IMG/VR virus record: IMGVR_UViG_3300016471_001035
Span: 64,001 to 128,000 of that record
Direction: 5' to 3' (one strand)
DNA from: a virus
DNA: 64,000 nucleotides
The position numbers and the translations under genes were made by a program. This document shows, in pieces, positions 5,808-48,096 of this stretch. The first letter of the stretch is position 1. Every line of letters starts with the position of its first letter. The notes under the pieces were generated by a model. It made no database searches, had not been told where the DNA came from, and saw nothing but the letters and a program-made list of their open reading frames with translations.

Positions 5808-6360
5808 ATCTAAGGGAACTAAGGAGGCTCTAACAGAGGAAAATACTGGCTCTGTTGAAAATGATCCTCAGCTTCAAAAGCTCTTAAAAGAAGGGAAGAT
5901 ACCTCTTGCTGCCGAGCCGGTTAAGAAAGGTAAAGACAAGGTACATTATGTTAACGGTAAAGAATTTGAAGAAGAGATAAGAAGATATTATAAATCAGGC
6001 AACGTTACACAGAAATTAGGCGAAAGCATTACAAAGATTGCACACGGACTATCTTACGCGCCTAACTTTATCAATTATAGTTATAAAGATGATATGATTG
6101 GAGACGCTATAGTAAAAATGTTCTCTGCTTTAAGAAATAAAAAGTTTAAGCTTGATACTGGATTTAGTCCTTTTTCTTATTTTACTACAATTGCTTTCCA
6201 CGCATTTATTAATCGTATTAAAAAAGAAAATAAGCATCACGCAGTATTAAATGAATACAGAGAAAAGGTGTATACCGACTTAATGTTAGATCCTGATGTC
6301 GCAGGAAATGCGCATATCTATGTTGAACCGACAGATGATAATTATAACTCTACTGGGTGA
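5734..6360 (+). CDS. gp55: late-transcription sigma factor gp55 (start may be ATG 5758)
   Basis: HYVN..EF, PNFINYSYKDDMIGDA, PFSYFTTIAFHAFINRIKKE; uvsW-55-47-46 gene order. Confidence 0.9.
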   Translation: MLTKEYFYMKKKKSTTQLKKSKKIKSKGTKEALTEENTGSVENDPQLQKLLKEGKIPLAAEPVKKGKDKVHYVNGKEFEEEIRRYYKSGNVTQKLGESITKIAHGLSYAPNFINYSYKDDMIGDAIVKMFSALRNKKFKLDTGFSPFSYFTTIAFHAFINRIKKENKHHAVLNEYREKVYTDLMLDPDVAGNAHIYVEPTDDNYNSTG

Positions 6361-10668: not shown

Positions 10669-13257
10669 GTGTATAGAAATGTTGCATATCTTCCTAGAGA
10701 GCAGCTTATGCGGCTATTTACTTGGGATAATGAGGGTAAAAGAGTAGCCCTTGATACAACCTATGAGCCGTACATTTATCTCGAAACAAATAATCATCCT
10801 GACTGTACTAGTATCTTTAACACCAAATTAAAGAAAAAAAGATTTAAAAATCAAGCTGAACGCTCTAGATATTTAAAAGACAATAAAATTGTAAGAGTAT
10901 TTGAAAATCTTAATATTCAACAGCAATTTTTAATTGATAATTTCTGGGAGCACAATGAAAAAGAGGATTTTACTAAACATCAAATAAGAGTTTTGTTTAT
11001 TGATATTGAGACTTACAGTCCCGATGAGTTTCCTAAACCCGACGATCCCACCCATCCCATTAATATTATTACAGTTTATGATACACTAAGAAATAAGTTT
11101 ATTACCTGGGGACTAAAAGCATATCATAAAAATATTGAAAACGGGCTATATATTTATTGTAAAACTGAGAAAGAGTTGTTATCAAAATTTTTAAGTTTTT
11201 TTACTTCTGATTATCCCGATATACTCTCAGGCTGGAATAGTGAATTTTTTGACGTACCTTATATTATTAATAGAATAACCCGAATTCTTGGTGAGGATGA
11301 GACAAAAAAATTATCACCAGTTGGTTATATTAGACCTATTATGTTCAAAGGTAAGTTTGGTAGAGAACAGGTGCACTGGCACATAGAGGGCGTTTCATGT
11401 GTAGATTACCTAGACATTTATAAAAGATTTTGCCCTACATTACGCGAATCATATAAACTTGATTCTATTGGTGAGATTGAATTGGGTGAAAATAAGATTG
11501 ATTACGGTGATACTAATCTTACTAGCCTTGCAGATGATAATTGGGAATTGTTTGTAGAGTATAATATCCAGGACGTTAATTTGCTGGTAAGGTTAGAGCA
11601 AAAACTTCAATATCTTGAATTATTAAGGATGATTGCTTATGCGGGGTTAACTACATTTGAAGGCGCTCTTGGTTCATTATCAGTAATTACGGGTTTATGT
11701 GCTATTAGAGCGAGGTCTCGTAATCAAAGAATCCCTACTTTTAATAAGGAAGTTCACAGCGATGAACAAAATGCTGGTGCGTATGTTGGTGAACCACGCA
11801 AAGGGTTTCAGGAGAATATAGTTTCATTTGACGCTAATAGTCTATATCCAAATGTTATGATAACATTAAACCTCTCTCCTGAAACAAAGGTAGGGGTAAT
11901 CACAGATAAAAATGATAAAGAAATAACTATACAGCATGTAAACGGACAAGAATTTAAATTATCACATCAAAGCTTTGTTGATTTTGTAAAGAAAGAAAAG
12001 ATAGCTATTTCAAAAGCAAAAGTTTTATTTACTCAGAAAGAAAAAGGAATTATACCGGTAACTGTAGATCATTTTTACAAGAAGAGAGTAGAGATTAAAA
12101 GACAGCTTAAACTTTTACAAAAGAAAATTATTTCTATAGAGAAAAACACAGATGAGTATAAGCAACTCAAATTGCAGATAGATAATTTAAATATTACTCA
12201 ACATACTATAAAAATCTTAATTAATACCATATACGGTTATTTCGGTAATAAGCACAGTCCCTTAGGCGATGATCAGCTAGCTGAGAGTATTACTCTTACA
12301 GGCCAAGCTGTAATTAAAGAATCTAATAGATTATTAGAAGAGTATGTAAAAAGTAAGACAGGAATGAGTAATGAAGATATCATAAAAGATACGCCTATAA
12401 TTTACAATGATACTGATAGTTCGTACATTTCTATTAAACATATCGTACAAAAAACAGGATTAAAAATGCTTGATAGTAAGGGTAAAATTACTTCTGAATA
12501 CTATAAAGAGGTACAGTCAATAGAGGACTATCTTAATAAAAATATTGTTGTCTGGGGTCAAACTGCGCTTGGTTCGCAAGATTGTAGGTTAAATTTTAAG
12601 AGAGAAGCTATAGCAGATGCAGGGATTTTTCTACAGAAAAAGAGATATGTACTTCACGTATTAGATGAGGAAGGCATACCATGCAATAAGTTTAAGTATA
12701 CAGGGGTAGAAGTGGTTAGGACTACTATGCCTGCGCCTATAAAGCCCCACGTTAAAAAGATTATTGAGACAATGTTATTAACAAAAGACCTAGCAGCTAC
12801 TAATAAAATTTTTAATGAAACTTATGAAATATTTAAAAACCTTAGCGTAGAAGATATAGCTTTTGTAATGGGCATTAAGGGGTATGAGAAATATTCATCG
12901 ATGTGTGACGGCTTTAAGACAGCAAAACATATGCCTATTCACGTAAAAGCTGCATATTTTTATAATATTTTGCTCGATAGGTTTAATACAGGTAAAAAGT
13001 ATGAAAAGATATCATCTGGAGATAAAGTAAGATATTTTTATGCTAAACAGCCCAACAAATTCGGTATATCTACTATCGGCTATAAGTATTCCTTTCCTAA
13101 AGAATTTAATGATGTGTTCGAACCTGATCACGAATTAATGTTTGAGAAAATTATTTTCTCAGTTATTGAGAGATTTTATGATGCAGTTAATTGGAAGCTT
13201 CAATCCCCAGGGACACAGGTTCAAACTGACCTTTTTGATCTACTAAAAGAAAGTTGA
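10669..13257 (+). CDS. gp43: family B DNA polymerase gp43
   Basis: Exo DIET, GWNSEFFD, YNIQD; Pol DANSLYP, KILINTIYG, YNDTDS, KKRY; C-terminal clamp-binding-like DLFDL. Confidence 0.96.
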   Translation: MYRNVAYLPREQLMRLFTWDNEGKRVALDTTYEPYIYLETNNHPDCTSIFNTKLKKKRFKNQAERSRYLKDNKIVRVFENLNIQQQFLIDNFWEHNEKEDFTKHQIRVLFIDIETYSPDEFPKPDDPTHPINIITVYDTLRNKFITWGLKAYHKNIENGLYIYCKTEKELLSKFLSFFTSDYPDILSGWNSEFFDVPYIINRITRILGEDETKKLSPVGYIRPIMFKGKFGREQVHWHIEGVSCVDYLDIYKRFCPTLRESYKLDSIGEIELGENKIDYGDTNLTSLADDNWELFVEYNIQDVNLLVRLEQKLQYLELLRMIAYAGLTTFEGALGSLSVITGLCAIRARSRNQRIPTFNKEVHSDEQNAGAYVGEPRKGFQENIVSFDANSLYPNVMITLNLSPETKVGVITDKNDKEITIQHVNGQEFKLSHQSFVDFVKKEKIAISKAKVLFTQKEKGIIPVTVDHFYKKRVEIKRQLKLLQKKIISIEKNTDEYKQLKLQIDNLNITQHTIKILINTIYGYFGNKHSPLGDDQLAESITLTGQAVIKESNRLLEEYVKSKTGMSNEDIIKDTPIIYNDTDSSYISIKHIVQKTGLKMLDSKGKITSEYYKEVQSIEDYLNKNIVVWGQTALGSQDCRLNFKREAIADAGIFLQKKRYVLHVLDEEGIPCNKFKYTGVEVVRTTMPAPIKPHVKKIIETMLLTKDLAATNKIFNETYEIFKNLSVEDIAFVMGIKGYEKYSSMCDGFKTAKHMPIHVKAAYFYNILLDRFNTGKKYEKISSGDKVRYFYAKQPNKFGISTIGYKYSFPKEFNDVFEPDHELMFEKIIFSVIERFYDAVNWKLQSPGTQVQTDLFDLLKES

Positions 13258-18486: not shown

Positions 18487-19175
18487 AAACAGCATTTTAT
18501 TTTTGTACAAGAAATTCTAAAGCGCAAGATACTTTTGCATTTAAATCTCTTCAAAGAATTAAACTAGCTACTCTATGGGAGTTTACTATAATTTATAAGG
18601 AAAATAATAATGACGGATTAAGCTTAAATTATAATAGTGTTTTAGAAAAGCATGGTAAAGATTATGATAACATAGTTTTTATACACGATGATGTTTATAT
18701 TGACGATCTTGGAGTGGTAAATAAGCTAGAAAAAGCTCATAATGATTTTGATATTGTAGGTCTTGCTGGGGGGTTAAATCCTGAAATTAAAGCACCCGCC
18801 CTTTGGCATTTAATGTGTGGGGGGTTTAACAGCGGTAATTTGAGAGGAGCAGTAGCCCATAAATTTAATAATGATCAAATTTTTATGACCAATTTTGGCC
18901 CCACACCCGCTAGAGTTGCTATTTTAGATGGACTATTCCTAAGCGTTAAAACCGAATGTTTTTTAAAAAAGGAATTTAAATTTAATGAAAATTATAACTT
19001 CCATCATTATGATATTGCCACCTGTATTGATGCTAATAAAAACAAATTAAAGTTAGGGGTCGTCCCTATATGGGTAGTACATAATTCACCCGGTCTTCTT
19101 AATATCAACGATGCTACATTTAGCGCTAGTCAATCTATATTTTTAAGAGAGTATAGCAGTATTGATTCTGTATAA
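18483..19175 (+). CDS. GT-A fold (GT2-like) glycosyltransferase
   Basis: VFIHDDVYI, IVGLAG, LDGLFL, FHHYDI motifs; ATGA-coupled to the GATase. Confidence 0.75.
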   Translation: MKTAFYFCTRNSKAQDTFAFKSLQRIKLATLWEFTIIYKENNNDGLSLNYNSVLEKHGKDYDNIVFIHDDVYIDDLGVVNKLEKAHNDFDIVGLAGGLNPEIKAPALWHLMCGGFNSGNLRGAVAHKFNNDQIFMTNFGPTPARVAILDGLFLSVKTECFLKKEFKFNENYNFHHYDIATCIDANKNKLKLGVVPIWVVHNSPGLLNINDATFSASQSIFLREYSSIDSV

Positions 19176-19189
19176 TTTTAATATATCAT
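19162..19189 (+). promoter_or_regulatory. early promoter of gp41
   Basis: TTGATT-N16-TATCAT-N6-ATG. Confidence 0.7.
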
Positions 19190-19195
19190 AAGAGA

Positions 19196-20524
19196 ATGGT
19201 TAAATTAGATCTAGATTTTTTTGAGCTTATTATTGCTTATAAATCATTAACTGATGAAACCTATTTAGCTTCTGTTGTCGACCATATAAAGCCTATTTTC
19301 TTTAAAAATAAAGATATTAAAGTTATTTTTACAATAATAAGAGATTTTTATGAAAAAAGAAATGCATGTCCTACCTTAACAGAAATAAAATCGTATTTAA
19401 CTAACGATGAGCTTAAAAATTCATTTAAGAATGTTGTAACACAGTTTAATAATTTAGATAAAAATTTTAACACAGATGAATTATCTGCTAATACAGAAAC
19501 TTTTATAAAAGAAAAATCCGTATACCATACAATGATGGATGTAGTAGATGATATCAACAAAAATAGTGTCGACACTTCTAAAATTTTAGCTAAATTTGAA
19601 AAAGCTTGTAGTATATCTTTAACCACTGAAATAGGGTTAGATTTGTATGCTAATTTAGATAGAGTAATTGAAGACCTGCATTCTTCAGAAAAATATATTC
19701 CTTCTAAATGGAAATGGCTTGATGATAAAATAGGAGGTGGGTTTCTAGAATCTGGTAGAGCACTCTATTTGTTTGCAGGCGAAACAAATATTGGTAAAAG
19801 TATATTTTTAGGAAATGTAGCTATTAACATAGCTGAGCAAGGAAAGACTGTATTGCTTGTTTCTTTAGAAATGCCAGAAATAATTTATGCTAAAAGACTC
19901 GTTTCAAGTGTATCTAAAATACCATTAAGCCAATTAAAAATAGAGTCTGATTCTTTAAAAAATCAAATTAGCGAGTATTGTATTGAAAATCCAAACGCAA
20001 AAATTATTATAAAGGAGTTTCCTCCCGCAACAATTACGCCCAACCATTTAAAGGCTTTTATTAAAAAATTAATACAAAAAGGTATTAAGATAGATGCCAT
20101 AGTTTTGGATTACGTAAATCTATTACATTCGTCTATGGGTGATTCAAGCTATGAGCGTGTTAAGATTTGTACTGAACAATTAAGAGCTTTATCATATGGG
20201 TTTAATTGCCCTGTTATATCCGCTACTCAGTTAAACCGTGAGGGGTATGAAATAACTGACCCAGGTTTAAAGACAATATCAGAAAGTATAGGGTTGGCTA
20301 TGACAGGTGACGTTATTATGAGTATTTGGCAAGAAGATACAGATAAAGAACTTGGCATTATTAAAATGGGATTAATGAAAAACAGGTTTGGACCTAATTA
20401 CGGTCATTGTGCAATGAGGATAGATTATTCAACACTTACTATTACAGAAGACGAGCATATAAATGACACAGAAGCAAGCACTTCTTCAATTAGTACGTTG
20501 ACAAAATTAGCTATCGACAATTGA
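19196..20524 (+). CDS. gp41: DnaB-like replicative helicase gp41
   Basis: GETNIGKS, SLEM, IKEFP, LDYVNLL, SATQLNR, ISES, MKNRFG. Confidence 0.93.
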   Translation: MVKLDLDFFELIIAYKSLTDETYLASVVDHIKPIFFKNKDIKVIFTIIRDFYEKRNACPTLTEIKSYLTNDELKNSFKNVVTQFNNLDKNFNTDELSANTETFIKEKSVYHTMMDVVDDINKNSVDTSKILAKFEKACSISLTTEIGLDLYANLDRVIEDLHSSEKYIPSKWKWLDDKIGGGFLESGRALYLFAGETNIGKSIFLGNVAINIAEQGKTVLLVSLEMPEIIYAKRLVSSVSKIPLSQLKIESDSLKNQISEYCIENPNAKIIIKEFPPATITPNHLKAFIKKLIQKGIKIDAIVLDYVNLLHSSMGDSSYERVKICTEQLRALSYGFNCPVISATQLNREGYEITDPGLKTISESIGLAMTGDVIMSIWQEDTDKELGIIKMGLMKNRFGPNYGHCAMRIDYSTLTITEDEHINDTEASTSSISTLTKLAIDN

Positions 20525-20549
20525 TTTATCTATTTAGTTAGATAATTAG

Positions 20550-20846
20550 TTGTTGAATGTGAAAGGTTACGATCCTTCTGAGCAATTAACAGATTATGAA
20601 CAAACTCATTTGTTTTTATCTTTCTGTTCGTTTGTAACACTCACTAATACAAAAAAATTAAATCTTGCTAATGTTTTTATTACCCTTCTTAAGAATAAAG
20701 AATTTAGAGAGATTTTTAAAATTTATTGTGATTTAAAAAATGATTTTTCAGCTGTAAAATTTTTCTTGCAATTTGATTCAAGCTTGTATAAAAGTAAATA
20801 TATAATGAAATTTTTAAACTCAAATAAAAAGGCGCTTTTCCTATGA
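20550..20846 (+). CDS. hypothetical protein
   Basis: About 98 aa; start uncertain (TTG 20550 or GTG 20559). Confidence 0.55.
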   Translation: MLNVKGYDPSEQLTDYEQTHLFLSFCSFVTLTNTKKLNLANVFITLLKNKEFREIFKIYCDLKNDFSAVKFFLQFDSSLYKSKYIMKFLNSNKKALFL

Positions 20847-21055
20847 GCAATATTGTTAATGCTTCTGTAACTTTAGATAAGAAGAAATGTACAGATAAAG
20901 TTTATTTTGATAAAGCCTACAAAAGGTTTGCAAGAGAATTTTTAAGGTCGGGTGTGTTAGAGGATTTAAGATTTAAAAGGTGTTATTATAAACCAAGCGT
21001 GTTGCGTAAGTTAAAAAAGCAAGTTGCAAGACAGAAGTGGAAGTTTTACAATTGA
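20843..21055 (+). CDS. rpsU: phage-encoded ribosomal protein bS21
   Basis: 70 aa, basic; FDKAYKRFAR...SGVLEDLRFKRCYYKPSVLRK matches the bS21 pattern (ALRRFKR..G...R.R..YEKPS..R). Confidence 0.8.
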   Translation: MSNIVNASVTLDKKKCTDKVYFDKAYKRFAREFLRSGVLEDLRFKRCYYKPSVLRKLKKQVARQKWKFYN

Positions 21056-21693
21056 TTACCGAGTTTGAAAAGCACATTTATAATTCTTATTTAAAAGTCA
21101 CTAGATCAAATAGTGAACTACCTTACAAACTTAGAAAAAATTTTGAAAAAGTTGACGATAAGCTTTATGTAGCCTTAAAAAAGCTTTCTTCTTTTTTTAA
21201 GAGATACCCCCATATAAAAATAGAGGATTTTTTTCGCGCGCCTTATTCTCTTTACCCTGACGAAAAATATTTTCCAATAGAATATTTTTATTCACTTAAA
21301 GCTATAAAGTCCTATACTTTGTTTAATAAGCAACAGACAAATCTTGATCCGGATAGCGATGAACAGCTTAATAGCATTAAAAATTCATTAATTTTTATAA
21401 AAAGTTTTTGTAGAGATAATAATTTAAATGTAGAAAATTATATTTTTCACAAAACAAAAAATGAATATTCATTTATTTTGCACTTAAAAGAACATAATGT
21501 CAACGTATATACTTTATTAGGATTTAATAACTTTGAGAAAATTCTTAGAGGCTGTAACCCCGATATTACAAAATTTATTATTGGTGAGGATATATACAAC
21601 AACATCCAGGTATTTAGAACACGTCTTTATAATTCAAAAAAAGCAAGTAAAGTTGTCGAATATGGACTTAAAAAAATATTAGAAAAAGCTTGA
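21052..21693 (+). CDS. hypothetical protein, possible gp59 helicase loader
   Basis: About 213 aa, basic/aromatic, immediately upstream of gp32 as gene 59 is in T4; TTG 21052 overlaps the rpsU stop. Confidence 0.45.
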   Translation: MITEFEKHIYNSYLKVTRSNSELPYKLRKNFEKVDDKLYVALKKLSSFFKRYPHIKIEDFFRAPYSLYPDEKYFPIEYFYSLKAIKSYTLFNKQQTNLDPDSDEQLNSIKNSLIFIKSFCRDNNLNVENYIFHKTKNEYSFILHLKEHNVNVYTLLGFNNFEKILRGCNPDITKFIIGEDIYNNIQVFRTRLYNSKKASKVVEYGLKKILEKA

Positions 21694-21717
21694 TTAAGCA
21701 AATAAAGTTATTATTAT
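21690..21717 (+). promoter_or_regulatory. early promoter of gp32
   Basis: TTGATT-N16-TATTAT-N6-ATG. Confidence 0.7.
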
Positions 21718-21723
21718 TATTCT

Positions 21724-22578
21724 ATGAGTACATTTACCACATCGATGTTTGAAAGTATTAAGGGCGCTTTGACGAAAAATAACGAATCTACTGCTTCGAA
21801 GGTTAAAGACTATCTTCGCTGTGAAGCCGGCAACACATATACAGTTAGACTTATTCCTAATGTAAAAGACCCATCTAAGACGTTTTTTCACTATTATTCA
21901 TACGGCTGGAATAGTTTTGCTACTGGTGAGCTTATTACTGCAGTAAGCCCTACTACATGGAATCAGCGTGATCCTATTGCTGAAGAAAGGTATCGTATTT
22001 TGAGAACAGGTACAGAGAAAGAGAAGGAAAAGGCTTTGGCTATTAAGCGTAGAGAAAATTGGTTAGTTAATGTTTATATTATTAACGATCCCGTAAACTC
22101 TGATAATAATGGGAAGGTAAAGCTCTTACGTTTTGGTCGCCAGCTACATAAAATTATTATGGATGCTATTGAAGGTGAAGAAGCCGCAGAGCTTGGTCCT
22201 CGTATATTTGACCTATCTCCTAAAGGCTGTAACCTTAGAATTAAAGTTGAGAAGCAGGGTGACTACCCCACATACGTTTCATCTAAGTTTTCTACTCCTA
22301 AGGAAATAGAGGGGTTGGACGAAGATGATTATAAGAAAGTTTATAACAGCTCATTTGATCTTGAGTCATATGTTAGTGTTAAGAGCTACGAAGAGCTTAA
22401 AAATCTACTTGATGCGCATTACTATGGCACCAAGGATGTTGAAGAGGACGGCGCTGTTACTGCTGAAGTTAAAGCACCTAAGCCTTCAGTTAATGTAACT
22501 ATTAATTCTAAGAAGGCTGAGACGAAAGAGACTACAGCCGACGATCAGCAAATAGACGAATTACTTAAAGATCTATAA
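21724..22578 (+). CDS. gp32: single-stranded DNA-binding protein gp32
   Basis: VRLIP, NVYIINDP..NNGKVKL, IFD...GCN, YPTY..SKF; acidic tail IDELLKDL. Confidence 0.88.
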   Translation: MSTFTTSMFESIKGALTKNNESTASKVKDYLRCEAGNTYTVRLIPNVKDPSKTFFHYYSYGWNSFATGELITAVSPTTWNQRDPIAEERYRILRTGTEKEKEKALAIKRRENWLVNVYIINDPVNSDNNGKVKLLRFGRQLHKIIMDAIEGEEAAELGPRIFDLSPKGCNLRIKVEKQGDYPTYVSSKFSTPKEIEGLDEDDYKKVYNSSFDLESYVSVKSYEELKNLLDAHYYGTKDVEEDGAVTAEVKAPKPSVNVTINSKKAETKETTADDQQIDELLKDL

Positions 22579-22976
22579 TGGAAGATACTTTTAGAGAGTT
22601 AACTCCAGAAGAAATTAAACTGGCTACTATCCAGTTTATGGGCCAGCACCTAACTGGAGAAATGAAAGAACTCAATAAAAATATTATCGGCGAAAGCGCT
22701 ACACTTAGATCTTTATCCATAGACCCCTTAAAAGTTATTCAAACAATTCCAGGGGATAAACGTCCATATGCTACAACTGTTAATGCTGGGATAAATATTG
22801 CTCCTAACGCTATTCATCATCCTATTCCAGTACAGCAATCTCAACAACCCACAGTAGATCCTAATCAACTTGAATTTGATTTTGGTAAGTCAAATTTAGC
22901 AAATTCTATTTTAGATCGGTTAGATTCGTTGAGCTCAAAATTAGATAAAGTTATAGCCTTACTTAAAAAAGATTGA
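22578..22976 (+). CDS. hypothetical protein
   Basis: 132 aa; DPNQLEFDF motif, C-terminal coiled coil. Confidence 0.55.
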   Translation: MEDTFRELTPEEIKLATIQFMGQHLTGEMKELNKNIIGESATLRSLSIDPLKVIQTIPGDKRPYATTVNAGINIAPNAIHHPIPVQQSQQPTVDPNQLEFDFGKSNLANSILDRLDSLSSKLDKVIALLKKD

Positions 22977-23000
22977 TAATTAGTAGTTATATCTTATTAT
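22973..23000 (+). promoter_or_regulatory. early promoter of gp45
   Basis: TTGATA-N16-TATTAT-N6-GTG. Confidence 0.7.
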
Positions 23001-29059: not shown

Positions 29060-29791
29060 TTACCATTCTAAAATAACACACCCACCTACACCGCTACCGC
29101 TGTTTGCAGATCCGCCAAAACCAAAATTAGAAAATATTTTTCCAGGTAAATTATTTGTACCGTTTAAGATTATTATTCCACCTGATCCGCTACCACCACC
29201 ACCCTGTCCCCCACTGCCTCCAGCAGAATTGTTACCACAATTTTTAAATGCTCCTCCACCGCCATTTCCGCCTGTAGCTACTATGCTGCCTACTGATGTA
29301 GATCCTCCTACTTGACCAGCACCTGCAGTAACGCCACAACCCGTGCTTCCACCACCGCCACCGCCATTTCCAATAGAAATTGATAGCTGTTGCCCAGGTG
29401 TTACATCTAAAATACCTAAACAGCATCCACCCCCACCACCAGCTCCGCCTCCATATGCTCCATAGCTAGAGGATGCACCTCCCCCTGCACCGCCCCCACC
29501 ACCTATACATGTAACTTTTAATTTTGTTATATTAGAAGGTACAGTAAATGTACTGGATGAGGTAAATAGCTGTAAGCCGCTAAACGTAGAAAAAGATGGT
29601 TTATTTAACAAATCGGTGTAACTACCAGTTGTCGCAACAGTAGCTAATGTAGGCTTGTTGGCTATATTAGTATAATCTACTTGTAAAGCTGATAATTGTG
29701 CTTTACCGGTTGTACTTCCATTTGATATAGGGACAACCAGAGAGCCTTGAGGAGTTATATCATTTAATTGAGATATAGTTATATCAGCCAT
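29060..29791 (-). CDS. tail fibre protein with glycine-rich domain
   Basis: MADITISQL anchor, TVATTGSYTDLLNKP fibre repeat, FTVP..IGGGGG..GG.G..ILEW Gly-rich domain. Confidence 0.75.
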   Translation of the reverse strand: MADITISQLNDITPQGSLVVPISNGSTTGKAQLSALQVDYTNIANKPTLATVATTGSYTDLLNKPSFSTFSGLQLFTSSSTFTVPSNITKLKVTCIGGGGGAGGGASSSYGAYGGGAGGGGGCCLGILDVTPGQQLSISIGNGGGGGGSTGCGVTAGAGQVGGSTSVGSIVATGGNGGGGAFKNCGNNSAGGSGGQGGGGSGSGGIIILNGTNNLPGKIFSNFGFGGSANSGSGVGGCVILEW

Positions 29792-45714: not shown

Positions 45715-48096
45715 ATGGCAACTACATTTACAAGAGATACGGCGACATCTACTAGTACTATTTTAAACAAAGCTATAATGGGTATGGCTCTACCTCATGA
45801 TCAAGCTAGAGATTACAGTACCTTTCTTCAGGTAATGGGTAGTAATGCAGAGCCTAACCCCGGTTTAGGCACTTCATCTAGTGTAGGCACGTTTAGTAGA
45901 TCTGCAACGCCAACTGGAGGCGCACTAGTACCAAACAGTAGAGGTAAAGTTAATAGCGGTGCGCTTTATAACTTTCTAAAGCAAGAGATAGAAAATTCTA
46001 AATTATTGGGGTTTGTTCCTAAAGACGGTAAGAAATACGGAATTGATGGATCCGGAGATTCTTATGCAGATTTCATGACTCAAACTGCTCAATGGGAATC
46101 GGGGTTTAGAGTAAATGCTAAAGGCGATGTTGGAAGATATAGGGGCGGTTCTAATGGTTTATTCCAGCTGTCACCTGACGACGCTCTTACGTATAAAATT
46201 CAAAAAACACCTTTTACTATTCAACAGCTACAAGACCCGGCTTTAAACGCCAGGGTTGCTGTAAAGATATTAGAAGATAACGTATTGAGAGACGGTGTAA
46301 TGGTAGGTCAATCAGGCCCAAGCACGTTTTTAGGGGCTTCAGCTTATTGGGGCCCTCACAGACCAAATAGACCTTCAGATCAACGTATAAAAATAACTCC
46401 TGGTAAATTTATACCCGCTAGTACAGCTGCTAAAGATATAGAATCAGATACTGTACAAACGCTTAGTAGAATATCTACAGAATATAAGAGAACATTAACG
46501 TCACCGGCGCCTGTAAATCAGCGTACTATATTTTTTACTAGTTTTGACGGTAAGGTAATATCAAATAATTTAGATAATAGACATGCGTTTGATTACTTTA
46601 GGGCTTTTTCATCACAAGCAGAATCCATGTATGAATCTGTACCTAGTAGTTTATTTGATGAAGATTCCTTTTTAAGCCCCCCTAGCGATTCGCTAGGGTT
46701 TTTCTCAACAAATGTGTTTCCTAAGTTTACGCCAGGTGTTGCTCCTGCTTGGGATTTTAATAGCTTTGGAGCTATACAAGACAATAATGCTTTAATTTTT
46801 TCAAAAGATACTTGGTCTACTAGCTATGGCGGACCTTACATGTTTGCTGGTAATAATGTTCAAAAAGTTTCAGATAACACTTACATGATGACTGTTGATA
46901 TGAGTGATATAACTCAATCTCTGCATAATTATAATTTTCAAAATATAGTAAGAAAAAATCAGAGTAGTGATGTATTTGGTGGAGGAGATCAAACCCAGTC
47001 TTCTCAACTAGTAGGAACTACTGATTTACCAAGCTACATAGATCATTACAATAATAAAAGCTATTACCTAGAAGATTTTAAAGGGCTTTTTCCTAATACT
47101 TTTGAGTATATATCATATTTTAACACAGTAAACGATAATCCTGGCTATAATCCCCGTGATTATAAGAGTAAAAATCTTGAAAAAATGGAAGATATATATG
47201 CAGAACTCAATGTTGAGGGTCAAATTATAAAAGTCGACCTACTTTTAAAAAAATATAAGAAACCTGTTAGTAACAGAAGTATAAAAAGATCATTATGTTT
47301 ATGTGAAGGGTGTGGAGAAGCTAAAGATAACCAGGAAGGCGGCGAAACTCTAGATACAGCTACGATAAATAAAAGATTTCTAGAGCAAGGAACCACAAGA
47401 GGCGGGTTAGAAAGTGCTAAAACAAAGGGTTTATTTAGTGCTAATAGAGGAGCATTAGAAAGTGCTAAAGTAAAGGGAATTTTAAATAGTAATCTCTCAA
47501 TATTTGACAAAGCTGAAGATAAATTAGAACAGGCTAGAGAAGCTTTTTCACTACCTCAACAAAAAGTTGCAGAGTTACAAGCTAAAATAAGTCAGGTAGG
47601 TATTAATAATATTCCAGGACTACAGGATATTACTAGTCCTATTAATGATTTGTTGGGATCGGCGTCAGGGCTAACATCTATATTACAGACGCCTTTAAAT
47701 CTTCCTAACATTCTACCCTCTGTTGACGCCGGTTCTTTCCCTCAAATTGCAGGATTGCTAATGAATACTAATTGGAAGAACTTGGATGTAGGTAGTACTG
47801 TAGAAATTGCAAAACAATTAAATACTATTTTATGCGATTTTAGATTACCAATTATAGGTAAAATAGAATGGGAAGATATTTTCGATATTGATATTGAGGA
47901 TTTTGATATTGGAGAAGAATTTGATAAGTTTATTCAAGGGTTTAAAAAGAAATTTGATAAACTCTTTACAGATCTGCAAGATAAATTTAAGAATTTATTG
48001 CCTAATTTCTTTAAGAACTTAGAAAACTTCTTTAAAGACATATTTACTTGCGACGAAAAACCTAATGTTAAAGATTCAGATAAAAAAGTTAATTAA
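45715..48096 (+). CDS. baseplate/tail protein with lytic transglycosylase (SLT) domain
   Basis: AQWESGF...SNGLFQL...DPALNARVAVKIL lysozyme-like motifs. Confidence 0.65.
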   Translation: MATTFTRDTATSTSTILNKAIMGMALPHDQARDYSTFLQVMGSNAEPNPGLGTSSSVGTFSRSATPTGGALVPNSRGKVNSGALYNFLKQEIENSKLLGFVPKDGKKYGIDGSGDSYADFMTQTAQWESGFRVNAKGDVGRYRGGSNGLFQLSPDDALTYKIQKTPFTIQQLQDPALNARVAVKILEDNVLRDGVMVGQSGPSTFLGASAYWGPHRPNRPSDQRIKITPGKFIPASTAAKDIESDTVQTLSRISTEYKRTLTSPAPVNQRTIFFTSFDGKVISNNLDNRHAFDYFRAFSSQAESMYESVPSSLFDEDSFLSPPSDSLGFFSTNVFPKFTPGVAPAWDFNSFGAIQDNNALIFSKDTWSTSYGGPYMFAGNNVQKVSDNTYMMTVDMSDITQSLHNYNFQNIVRKNQSSDVFGGGDQTQSSQLVGTTDLPSYIDHYNNKSYYLEDFKGLFPNTFEYISYFNTVNDNPGYNPRDYKSKNLEKMEDIYAELNVEGQIIKVDLLLKKYKKPVSNRSIKRSLCLCEGCGEAKDNQEGGETLDTATINKRFLEQGTTRGGLESAKTKGLFSANRGALESAKVKGILNSNLSIFDKAEDKLEQAREAFSLPQQKVAELQAKISQVGINNIPGLQDITSPINDLLGSASGLTSILQTPLNLPNILPSVDAGSFPQIAGLLMNTNWKNLDVGSTVEIAKQLNTILCDFRLPIIGKIEWEDIFDIDIEDFDIGEEFDKFIQGFKKKFDKLFTDLQDKFKNLLPNFFKNLENFFKDIFTCDEKPNVKDSDKKVN

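Follow-up and report, generated by a model that had tools for sequence, protein, structure and literature searches.

The DNA analysed here, referred to as the window, is a stretch of 64,000 nucleotides that corresponds to bases 64001-128000 of a 139,594-bp IMG/VR viral record with a CheckV completeness of 66% and a GC content of 33.5%. Its replication operon contains a small open reading frame of 70 codons, located between the genes for a replicative helicase and a single-stranded DNA-binding protein (Table 1). The gene order gp41-orf-rpsU-gp59-like-gp32, read from the sequence in the original prediction, is correct according to profile matches and, in the case of gp59, a structure match.

Table 1. 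Features of the replication operon in window coordinates, and the second S21 type found in relatives.
Feature	Position	Strand	Composition or basis of assignment
Sigma70-like promoter on helicase start	19162..19195	+	TTGATT (19162-19167), 16 nt, TATCAT (19184-19189), 6 nt, ATG 19196
gp41/DnaB-type replicative helicase, 442 aa	19196..20524	+	Pfam DnaB_C 3.8e-27, PHROG 19 2.1e-74
Conserved ORF, 98 aa from TTG	20550..20846	+	Kept in 80/80 related loci, with or without S21
Phage bS21 paralogue "type A", 70 aa	20843..21055	+	Pfam, TIGR00030 and PHROG profile matches; PDB bS21 chains
gp59-like helicase loader, 213-218 aa	21052..21693	+	AlphaFold model, structural match to T4 gp59
Sigma70-like promoter on gp32 start	21690..21723	+	TTGATT, 16 nt, TATTAT, 6 nt, ATG 21724
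gp32 single-stranded DNA-binding protein (SSB)	21724..22578	+	Pfam gp32 1e-16, PHROG 224 1.3e-40
Type-B S21, non-orthologous to type A	1495-1677 in extracted pieces of both the 193-kb and the 199-kb relative

The assignment of the 70-aa product as a bS21 homologue was confirmed by HMM search, with scores above the curated cut-offs of both Pfam PF01165 Ribosomal_S21 (E 2e-10, 40.7 bits; cut-off 27) and TIGR00030 S21p (32.1 bits; cut-off 28.95). A match to PHROG 21469, 'ribosomal protein S21', was obtained as well, and the size of the protein falls within the ~55-75 aa of the bS21 family. The best solved bS21 chain was that of Lactococcus (5myj, 1.9e-6), with 5nd8 also among the best PDB matches. 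The profile match is limited to profile positions 10-53, and both the HMM and the PDB matches start at approximately residue 20-22 of the query, equivalent to profile position 10-11. Consequently, a non-matching stretch of about 10 additional residues precedes the canonical start, in agreement with the divergent N-terminus that had been proposed (HMM match from residue 22). The core of the protein features K27-R28-F29 (the (R/K)RF motif), K50-P51-S52 (KPS) and a basic C-terminal helix, and the chain ends in KWKFYN, the aromatic C-terminus pointed out previously, in which K65 and W66 are conserved at ≥90% in 41 distinct homologues. In an AlphaFold model (pLDDT 84) residues 1-18 are non-helical and are followed by helices at 19-36, 38-46 and 51-68. 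A Foldseek search with this small model returned a single weak match, chain u of the chlororibosome (E 3.3).

Searching 5.8 billion proteins recovered 16 homologues at 56-90% identity. Likewise, a full HMMER scan of 1.84 billion representatives gave six proteins at E ≤1e-9, matching over nearly the full length with 45-74% identity and with the K-W motif mostly kept, while the remaining matches, at E 1e-5 or weaker, are presumably ordinary S21s. Identity to any cellular S21 was at most ~45% (E ~1e-5 or weaker), and no cellular donor lineage was found in the same scan. Among the 41 distinct proteins V9, L11, K19, Y21, F22, F29, K50-P51-S52, K58, K65 and W66 are conserved at ≥90%, F29, P51 and S52 being invariant or nearly so, and the C-terminal end follows the pattern K-W-K-[F/Y]-Y. 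A median pairwise dN/dS of 0.22 over 148 pairs reveals purifying selection which, in combination with this conservation, rules out a pseudogene or chance ORF. A nucleotide search with window positions 19000-23000 against 50,697 phage records gave no match, and the closest phage isolates are only ~30% identical in DNA polymerase. The 70-aa protein is a genuine, selected and clade-specific variant of an already known type of phage bS21 gene.

The ORF directly upstream of the S21 gene more likely starts at GTG 20559 (95 aa) than at the TTG, and had no match in Pfam, PHROG, NCBIfam or the protein Atlas. Gene 33 often occupies the corresponding place in T4-like genomes. An identity as gp33 found no support, with no BLASTP alignment to the gp33-like protein of Melnitz and nothing retrieved from the protein Atlas. 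The downstream ORF similarly had no sequence-profile match, and BLASTP against the HTVC008M loader reached only E 0.01. Its AF2 model (pLDDT 93) placed T4 gp59 (1c1k) at Foldseek rank 1 with a probability of 0.93, and the VIA comparison with 1c1k yielded a Z of 7.0 over 173/217 residues, covering both domains, the next entry reaching 3.8. Both the two-domain all-helical gp59 fold and the adjacency to gp32 are thus found for this ORF. The gene probably begins at TTG 21052, overlapping the S21 stop codon (TTGA), and not at GTG 21037 of the longest ORF; relatives begin the gene at the point matching 21052, and one of them has a stop codon inside the extension.

The start codon of the S21 gene overlaps the TGA stop of the upstream ORF (ATGA), a junction that reads TATGA in 35 of 39 distinct loci, and its own TGA shares bases with the gp59-like start codon, as TTGA in the window and as ATGA, TTGA or GTGA in relatives. 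No promoter abuts the S21 gene, and the best anti-Shine-Dalgarno (anti-SD) pairing in the region -20..-4 amounts to merely -3.4 kcal/mol. In combination, these observations mark S21 as an internal and probably translationally coupled cistron, and the transcription unit containing it likely starts at the predicted promoter on the helicase start. A T4-late-type TAAATA at 20795-20800 was considered as a promoter for S21 and discarded: it encodes part of a conserved stretch (K-S-K-Y) of the upstream ORF product and is missing in about one third of the 39 distinct loci. The placement between the helicase and the gp59-like/gp32 genes holds in 61/61 S21-carrying loci, with terminase and tail genes located 11-14 kb downstream.

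The mRNAs of this phage had been described as leaderless in appearance, with two promoter classes. A simple ORF call on the record gave 172 ORFs covering 94.5% of its length, 171 of which have enough upstream sequence for scoring. G is not enriched upstream of the starts (9-13% from -13 to -5), and no general SD signal is present. Conversely, 70 of the 171 genes (41%) have a sigma70-like (29 genes) or T4-late-like (41 genes) motif 5-6 nt before the start codon. The sigma70-like motif TTG-N18-20-TAnnnT peaks at a spacer of 6 nt with a count of 24, other spacings giving 0-7, and is associated with DNA polymerase, UvsX, primase, helicase and gp32. The late-like TAAATA peaks at spacers of 5 or 6 nt (counts of 37 and 15, against 0-3 elsewhere) and precedes large terminase, tail tube, sheath and tape measure genes. 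Sigma70 promoters have their -10 hexamer at -12 to -7, and the last base of the T4 late box is at about -6; with the observed spacings, the predicted transcript start is therefore the first base of the start codon. Both elements of the earlier description hold: the gene starts look leaderless far more often than chance would allow, and motifs of either promoter class abut start codons.

GTG starts are enriched among the promoter-abutted genes (15/70, against 5/101 of the other genes), for example in DNA polymerase and primase. In leaderless translation E. coli requires AUG, while mycobacteria accept GUG, and the enrichment may be a clue to the host. GTG codons at predicted leaderless 5' ends are located at window positions 10669, 23007, 24438 and 25794, among others. 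An SD-like site of ≤ -6 kcal/mol precedes 13 of the 101 non-promoter genes, compared to 5% of random 17-mers, which indicates that a few real SDs exist. Strong and well-spaced examples in internal genes are AAGGAG, upstream of the start at 45715 of a late gene of 793 aa, and GGAGG, upstream of the gene 29060-29791, which starts at 29791 on the minus strand.

Type-A S21 is found at exactly the same position in 61 of 80 related IMG/VR loci, whose helicases are 59-94% identical to that of the window. In the other 19 loci no S21 is present between the upstream ORF and the gp59-like gene, and these two genes then abut. The spacing between promoter motifs and starts in loci without the operon S21 is nevertheless the same as in the window's phage. 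Both near-complete genomes without the operon gene (198.8 kb, 91% complete, and 193.2 kb, 88%) carry one other S21 elsewhere (Table 1). This second type, type B, has 60 aa and a canonical N-terminus, lacks both KPS and Trp, scores 51-61 Pfam bits, and was found in eight viral contigs. Exactly one S21 was present in each of 12 further records that were checked, including five type-A genomes, five partial type-B contigs and the window's own record; the five partial type-B contigs lack the helicase locus and were left out of the mutual-exclusion comparison. No sufficiently complete member of the clade was without S21. As the near-complete genomes lacking type A carry type B, and the others have exactly one S21, the S21 function itself appears to be kept across the clade. 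In a quick tree of helicase and gp32, type A is found in the deepest branches, and its distribution requires at least three changes of state. The type-B genomes show the same layout of gene starts without the N-terminal extension or the KW motif, and the features specific to type A are therefore dispensable for the leaderless layout.

The original prediction went further, proposing that the variant replaces host bS21 and masks the anti-SD of 16S rRNA, so that ribosomes leave SD-led host mRNAs for the leaderless mRNAs of the phage. Its premises, that bS21 adjoins the anti-SD and that phage-borne copies are documented, are confirmed by published work (PMC7797042, PMC6375957, PMC9723584), and in Flavobacterium bS21 controls anti-SD availability (PMC7797042, PMC9976891). 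In the anti-SD-sequestering bS21 of Bacteroidia, Tyr54 stacks on A1534 and the tail is weakly basic, with special bS18 and bS6 also needed (Jha et al. 2020, PMC7797042). Neither the aromatic residue at the Tyr54 position nor the weakly basic tail was found in type-A S21 by alignment and composition. In a gapless alignment of query residues 20-62 to residues 10-52 of the F. johnsoniae protein (7jil_z), the equivalent of Tyr54 is Q64 and that of Ile55 is K65. Position 64 is variable in the clade (N/Q/F in the 70-aa subset), and the 18-residue tail after KPS is strongly basic, with seven K/R, no D/E and a pI of 11.3. The conserved W66 is situated two residues past the Tyr54-equivalent position, a point in favour of masking, and a register shift placing it at that position is conceivable from the alignment. 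The strong SD that marks autoregulation of the gene in Flavobacteriia is likewise absent upstream of type-A S21, where pairing stops at the -3.4 kcal/mol given above and the start codon overlaps the upstream stop instead.

The aromatic end as such is not exceptional, as the endings ...KRKKY and ...RKF occur in short S21s of the Firmicutes type. The bS21 of gamma- and betaproteobacteria touches the 30S head with its terminal RLY or KLY (PMC7550191), from a tail 10 residues longer than that of type A. A terminal [RK]-L-Y on a long tail (~28 residues after KPT in E. coli) was not found in type A, whose 18-residue tail ends in K-F-Y-N; in length and ending this tail resembles the short Firmicutes type (...RKRKKY), the source of the best PDB matches 5myj and 5nd8.

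The co-occurrence of S21 and leaderless promoter geometry was further studied outside the clade, using one 42-50-kb stretch per genome of HTVC008M, Mosig, Melnitz, T4, S-SSM4 and C48C1. In HTVC008M, which encodes S21, nine annotated CDS starts display (A)TAAATA-N5-ATG, and no sigma70-N6 peak was observed. These late-spacing starts are located in NC_020484.1, 1-50000, at 6280, 7562, 11972, 18943, 19456, 31132 and 49760 on the plus strand and at 18916 and 16007 on the minus strand. Mosig and Melnitz also carry S21 and gave no peak at any spacing. No peak was observed in C48C1, which has no S21, nor in T4, for which no S21 is known, or in S-SSM4. The expected co-occurrence is thus seen in the clade and, for the late class only, in HTVC008M, and it fails in Mosig and Melnitz. 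S21 consequently also occurs in phages that lack leaderless geometry, and the two are at best partly associated. We found no paper mentioning the late leaderless (A)TAAATA-N5 geometry of HTVC008M, and none linking phage S21 with leaderless mRNAs.

Taken together, a masking function of this kind, which would leave ribosomes free for leaderless and SD-free phage mRNAs, is unlikely. It would fit the scarcity of SDs and the exact leaderless geometry in 41% of the genes, the single S21 kept in every sufficiently complete genome of the clade, and the nine late starts of the S21 phage HTVC008M. Support can also be drawn from E. coli ribosomes carrying HTVC008M bS21, on which an SD-led GFP template gave ~5% of the wild-type signal, an effect left unexplained by the authors (PMC6375957). 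However, the replacement of Tyr54 by a variable residue and the strongly basic tail argue against the Bacteroidia mechanism, as does the dependence of sequestration in F. johnsoniae on features of the host's bS18 and bS6 (PMC7797042). Moreover, sister phages with type-B S21 share the geometry without the N-terminal extension or the KW motif, so that the features pointed out in the original prediction are not required, Mosig and Melnitz have S21 without any leaderless peak, and SD-like sites are retained in some non-promoter genes, such as that before 45715. In E. coli it is the loss of bS21 together with uS2 that favours the leaderless lambda cI mRNA (PMC10491246). A broader variant would have S21 of either type, in this clade of T4-like phages, as obligatory partner of a nearly fully SD-independent leaderless programme, with ribosomes poor at SD-led initiation while initiation at 5'-AUG/GUG and by coupling stays intact. 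It is doubtful to a similar degree, and if true would also explain the ~95% inactivity of HTVC008M-S21 ribosomes on the SD-led reporter.

The reading that we favour places the general function of S21, common to other S21 phages, at its core, with incorporation into the ribosome assumed by homology. The S21 gene would be transcribed from the sigma70-like promoter that abuts the helicase start, as part of the early/middle replication unit, and, having neither its own promoter nor a usable SD, would be translated by termination-reinitiation coupling, as suggested by the overlaps of its start with the upstream stop and of its TGA with the gp59-like start. Its product would then exchange into the host 30S subunit at the bS21 platform site, beside the 3' tail of 16S rRNA, as expected from bS21 in general and from the HTVC008M protein. 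There it could keep or set the initiation properties of the ribosome pool during shut-down of host gene expression, which would favour the phage messages, most of them without an SD and many leaderless. The retained ribosome-binding core, the purifying selection, the fixed position in 61/80 loci, the presence of type A in the deepest branches, the single S21 of each record checked and the ATGA/NTGA overlaps on both sides all support this reading. The unmatched first 10 profile positions and the low identity to cellular S21s leave some room for a changed or non-ribosomal role. In addition, HTVC008M bS21 incorporates into E. coli 70S ribosomes (PMC6375957), and bS21 is a late-binding, exchangeable protein adjoining the anti-SD (PMC7797042, PMC7550191). 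On this analysis, the gene probably encodes a functional, fast-evolving phage paralogue of bS21 whose most likely action is exchange into host 30S subunits, securing or tuning initiation on the SD-poor messages of the phage. It may in addition select against SD-led host mRNA.

A simpler version of ribosome exchange is that the phage merely supplies a spare part, replacing a labile and loosely bound host protein after shut-off with no change in ribosome specificity. Phages encode S21 far more often than any other ribosomal protein, and across unrelated phages and hosts (PMC6375957), it is present also in phages without leaderless geometry, and two non-orthologous types are interchangeable within the clade, all of which such a role would accommodate. 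However, type A is distant from cellular S21s, and its clade-specific N-terminal extension and K65-W66 (≥90%) look like adaptation and not like a copy of a host protein. The HTVC008M protein, furthermore, leaves E. coli ribosomes nearly inactive (PMC6375957), although incompatibility could also account for this. A pure replacement is accordingly regarded as a minor possibility, somewhat less remote than masking.

An S21-fold protein could alternatively have been recruited to a non-ribosomal task, e.g. as a small basic nucleic-acid-binding accessory of replication or helicase loading. The gene is embedded in the helicase/ORF/gp59-like/gp32 module with stop/start coupling to both flanking genes, its N-terminus has diverged, and an extraribosomal partner of bS21 is described for the OLE RNP (PMC12054373). 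Against this, relatives have lost the gene cleanly from the module and encode an S21 of canonical type in an unrelated place, which points to an S21 function and not to a replication function, and the ribosome-binding core motifs are conserved in type A. Recruitment to a non-ribosomal task is therefore considered highly improbable, and exchange into the ribosome is retained as the preferred explanation.

Some indications of the host are available from the remainder of the record. The early promoters are canonical, TTGAC(T/A)-N16/17-TATAAT, while Bacteroidota promoters are of the TTTG/TAnnTTTG type, which would argue against a Bacteroidota host. Neither WhiB, an actinophage marker, nor CsgG, a marker of pelagimyophages and Melnitz, was detected in the 139.6-kb record. 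S21-bearing T4-like isolates infect SAR11 and OM43, and a streamlined low-GC freshwater or marine heterotroph would be our guess. The sole tRNA of the record is a tRNA-Met(CAT) at genome positions 10751-10825, 53 kb before the window; its AT-rich anticodon stem shows that it is not an initiator, leaving elongator tRNA-Met and tRNA-Ile2 as candidates. A scan of genome contigs returned one related marine contig of 7.7 kb, NYZO01000029.1, binned as 'MAG: archaeon isolate ARS54'. It shares the gene order and has a helicase of 57% identity, but S21 is missing at this place and the upstream ORF abuts the gp59-like gene; it is probably a fragment of the window's phage clade mis-binned as archaeal.

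To our knowledge, the function of a phage-encoded bS21 has never been demonstrated. The clade provides an unusually clean setting in which to do so, with promoter-proximal genes that are nearly all predicted to be leaderless, rare SDs, and two non-orthologous S21s that swap between sister genomes. New observations here are the second S21 type in relatives lacking the replication-operon gene and the late leaderless spacing in the cultured HTVC008M. The latter makes the question directly testable, as the S21 of this phage is already known from published work to cripple an SD-led reporter. Should S21 bias ribosomes between leadered and leaderless mRNAs, this would constitute a new mode of viral translation takeover and would also inform the role of bS21 in initiation.

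Among known systems, the bS21 of F. johnsoniae (PMC7797042; McNutt et al. 2023, PMC9976891) served as the mechanistic model behind the original prediction. The two proteins are of one family and presumably share a binding site next to the 3' tail of 16S rRNA, but the signature Tyr54, weakly basic tail and strong autoregulatory SD of the Flavobacterium system are all absent here, and the bS18 and bS6 features on which it depends would be those of the host. Translation of leaderless lambda cI by E. coli ribosomes without uS2 and bS21 (PMC10491246) similarly connects bS21 and anti-SD position with a leaderless phage mRNA, yet in the opposite direction: there the absence of bS21 helps, whereas here a mostly leaderless phage adds bS21.

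The freshwater, putatively Bacteroidota-infecting myoviruses of Chen et al. (2022, PMC9723584) resemble the present phage in being uncultured and large, in consistently having one bS21 and in its divergent N-terminal region, and selective translation of phage mRNA has been proposed for both. In contrast, their S21 gene resides in the head/terminase module (terminase/capsid/portal) and is expressed late, while that described here is part of an early/middle replication operon. Their proteins also keep an aromatic residue at the Tyr54 position, which is Q64 in the window, and the early promoters differ in being canonical TTGACx/TATAAT here.

HTVC008M (Mizuno et al. 2019, PMC6375957) differs in that its bS21 is host-like, 54% identical to that of Pelagibacter, with a canonical N-terminus and no aromatic end, and in that the gene lies outside the replication operon, at ~91 kb. 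A tblastn search with the window protein did not find it, and the sigma70-N6 peak of the window's phage is absent from the HTVC008M stretch. Still, both are T4-like aquatic myoviruses with S21 and a GC content of ~33-34%, both have a 5-nt spacing between the late motif (A)TAAATA and start codons, and substitution into the ribosome has been proposed for the S21 of both.
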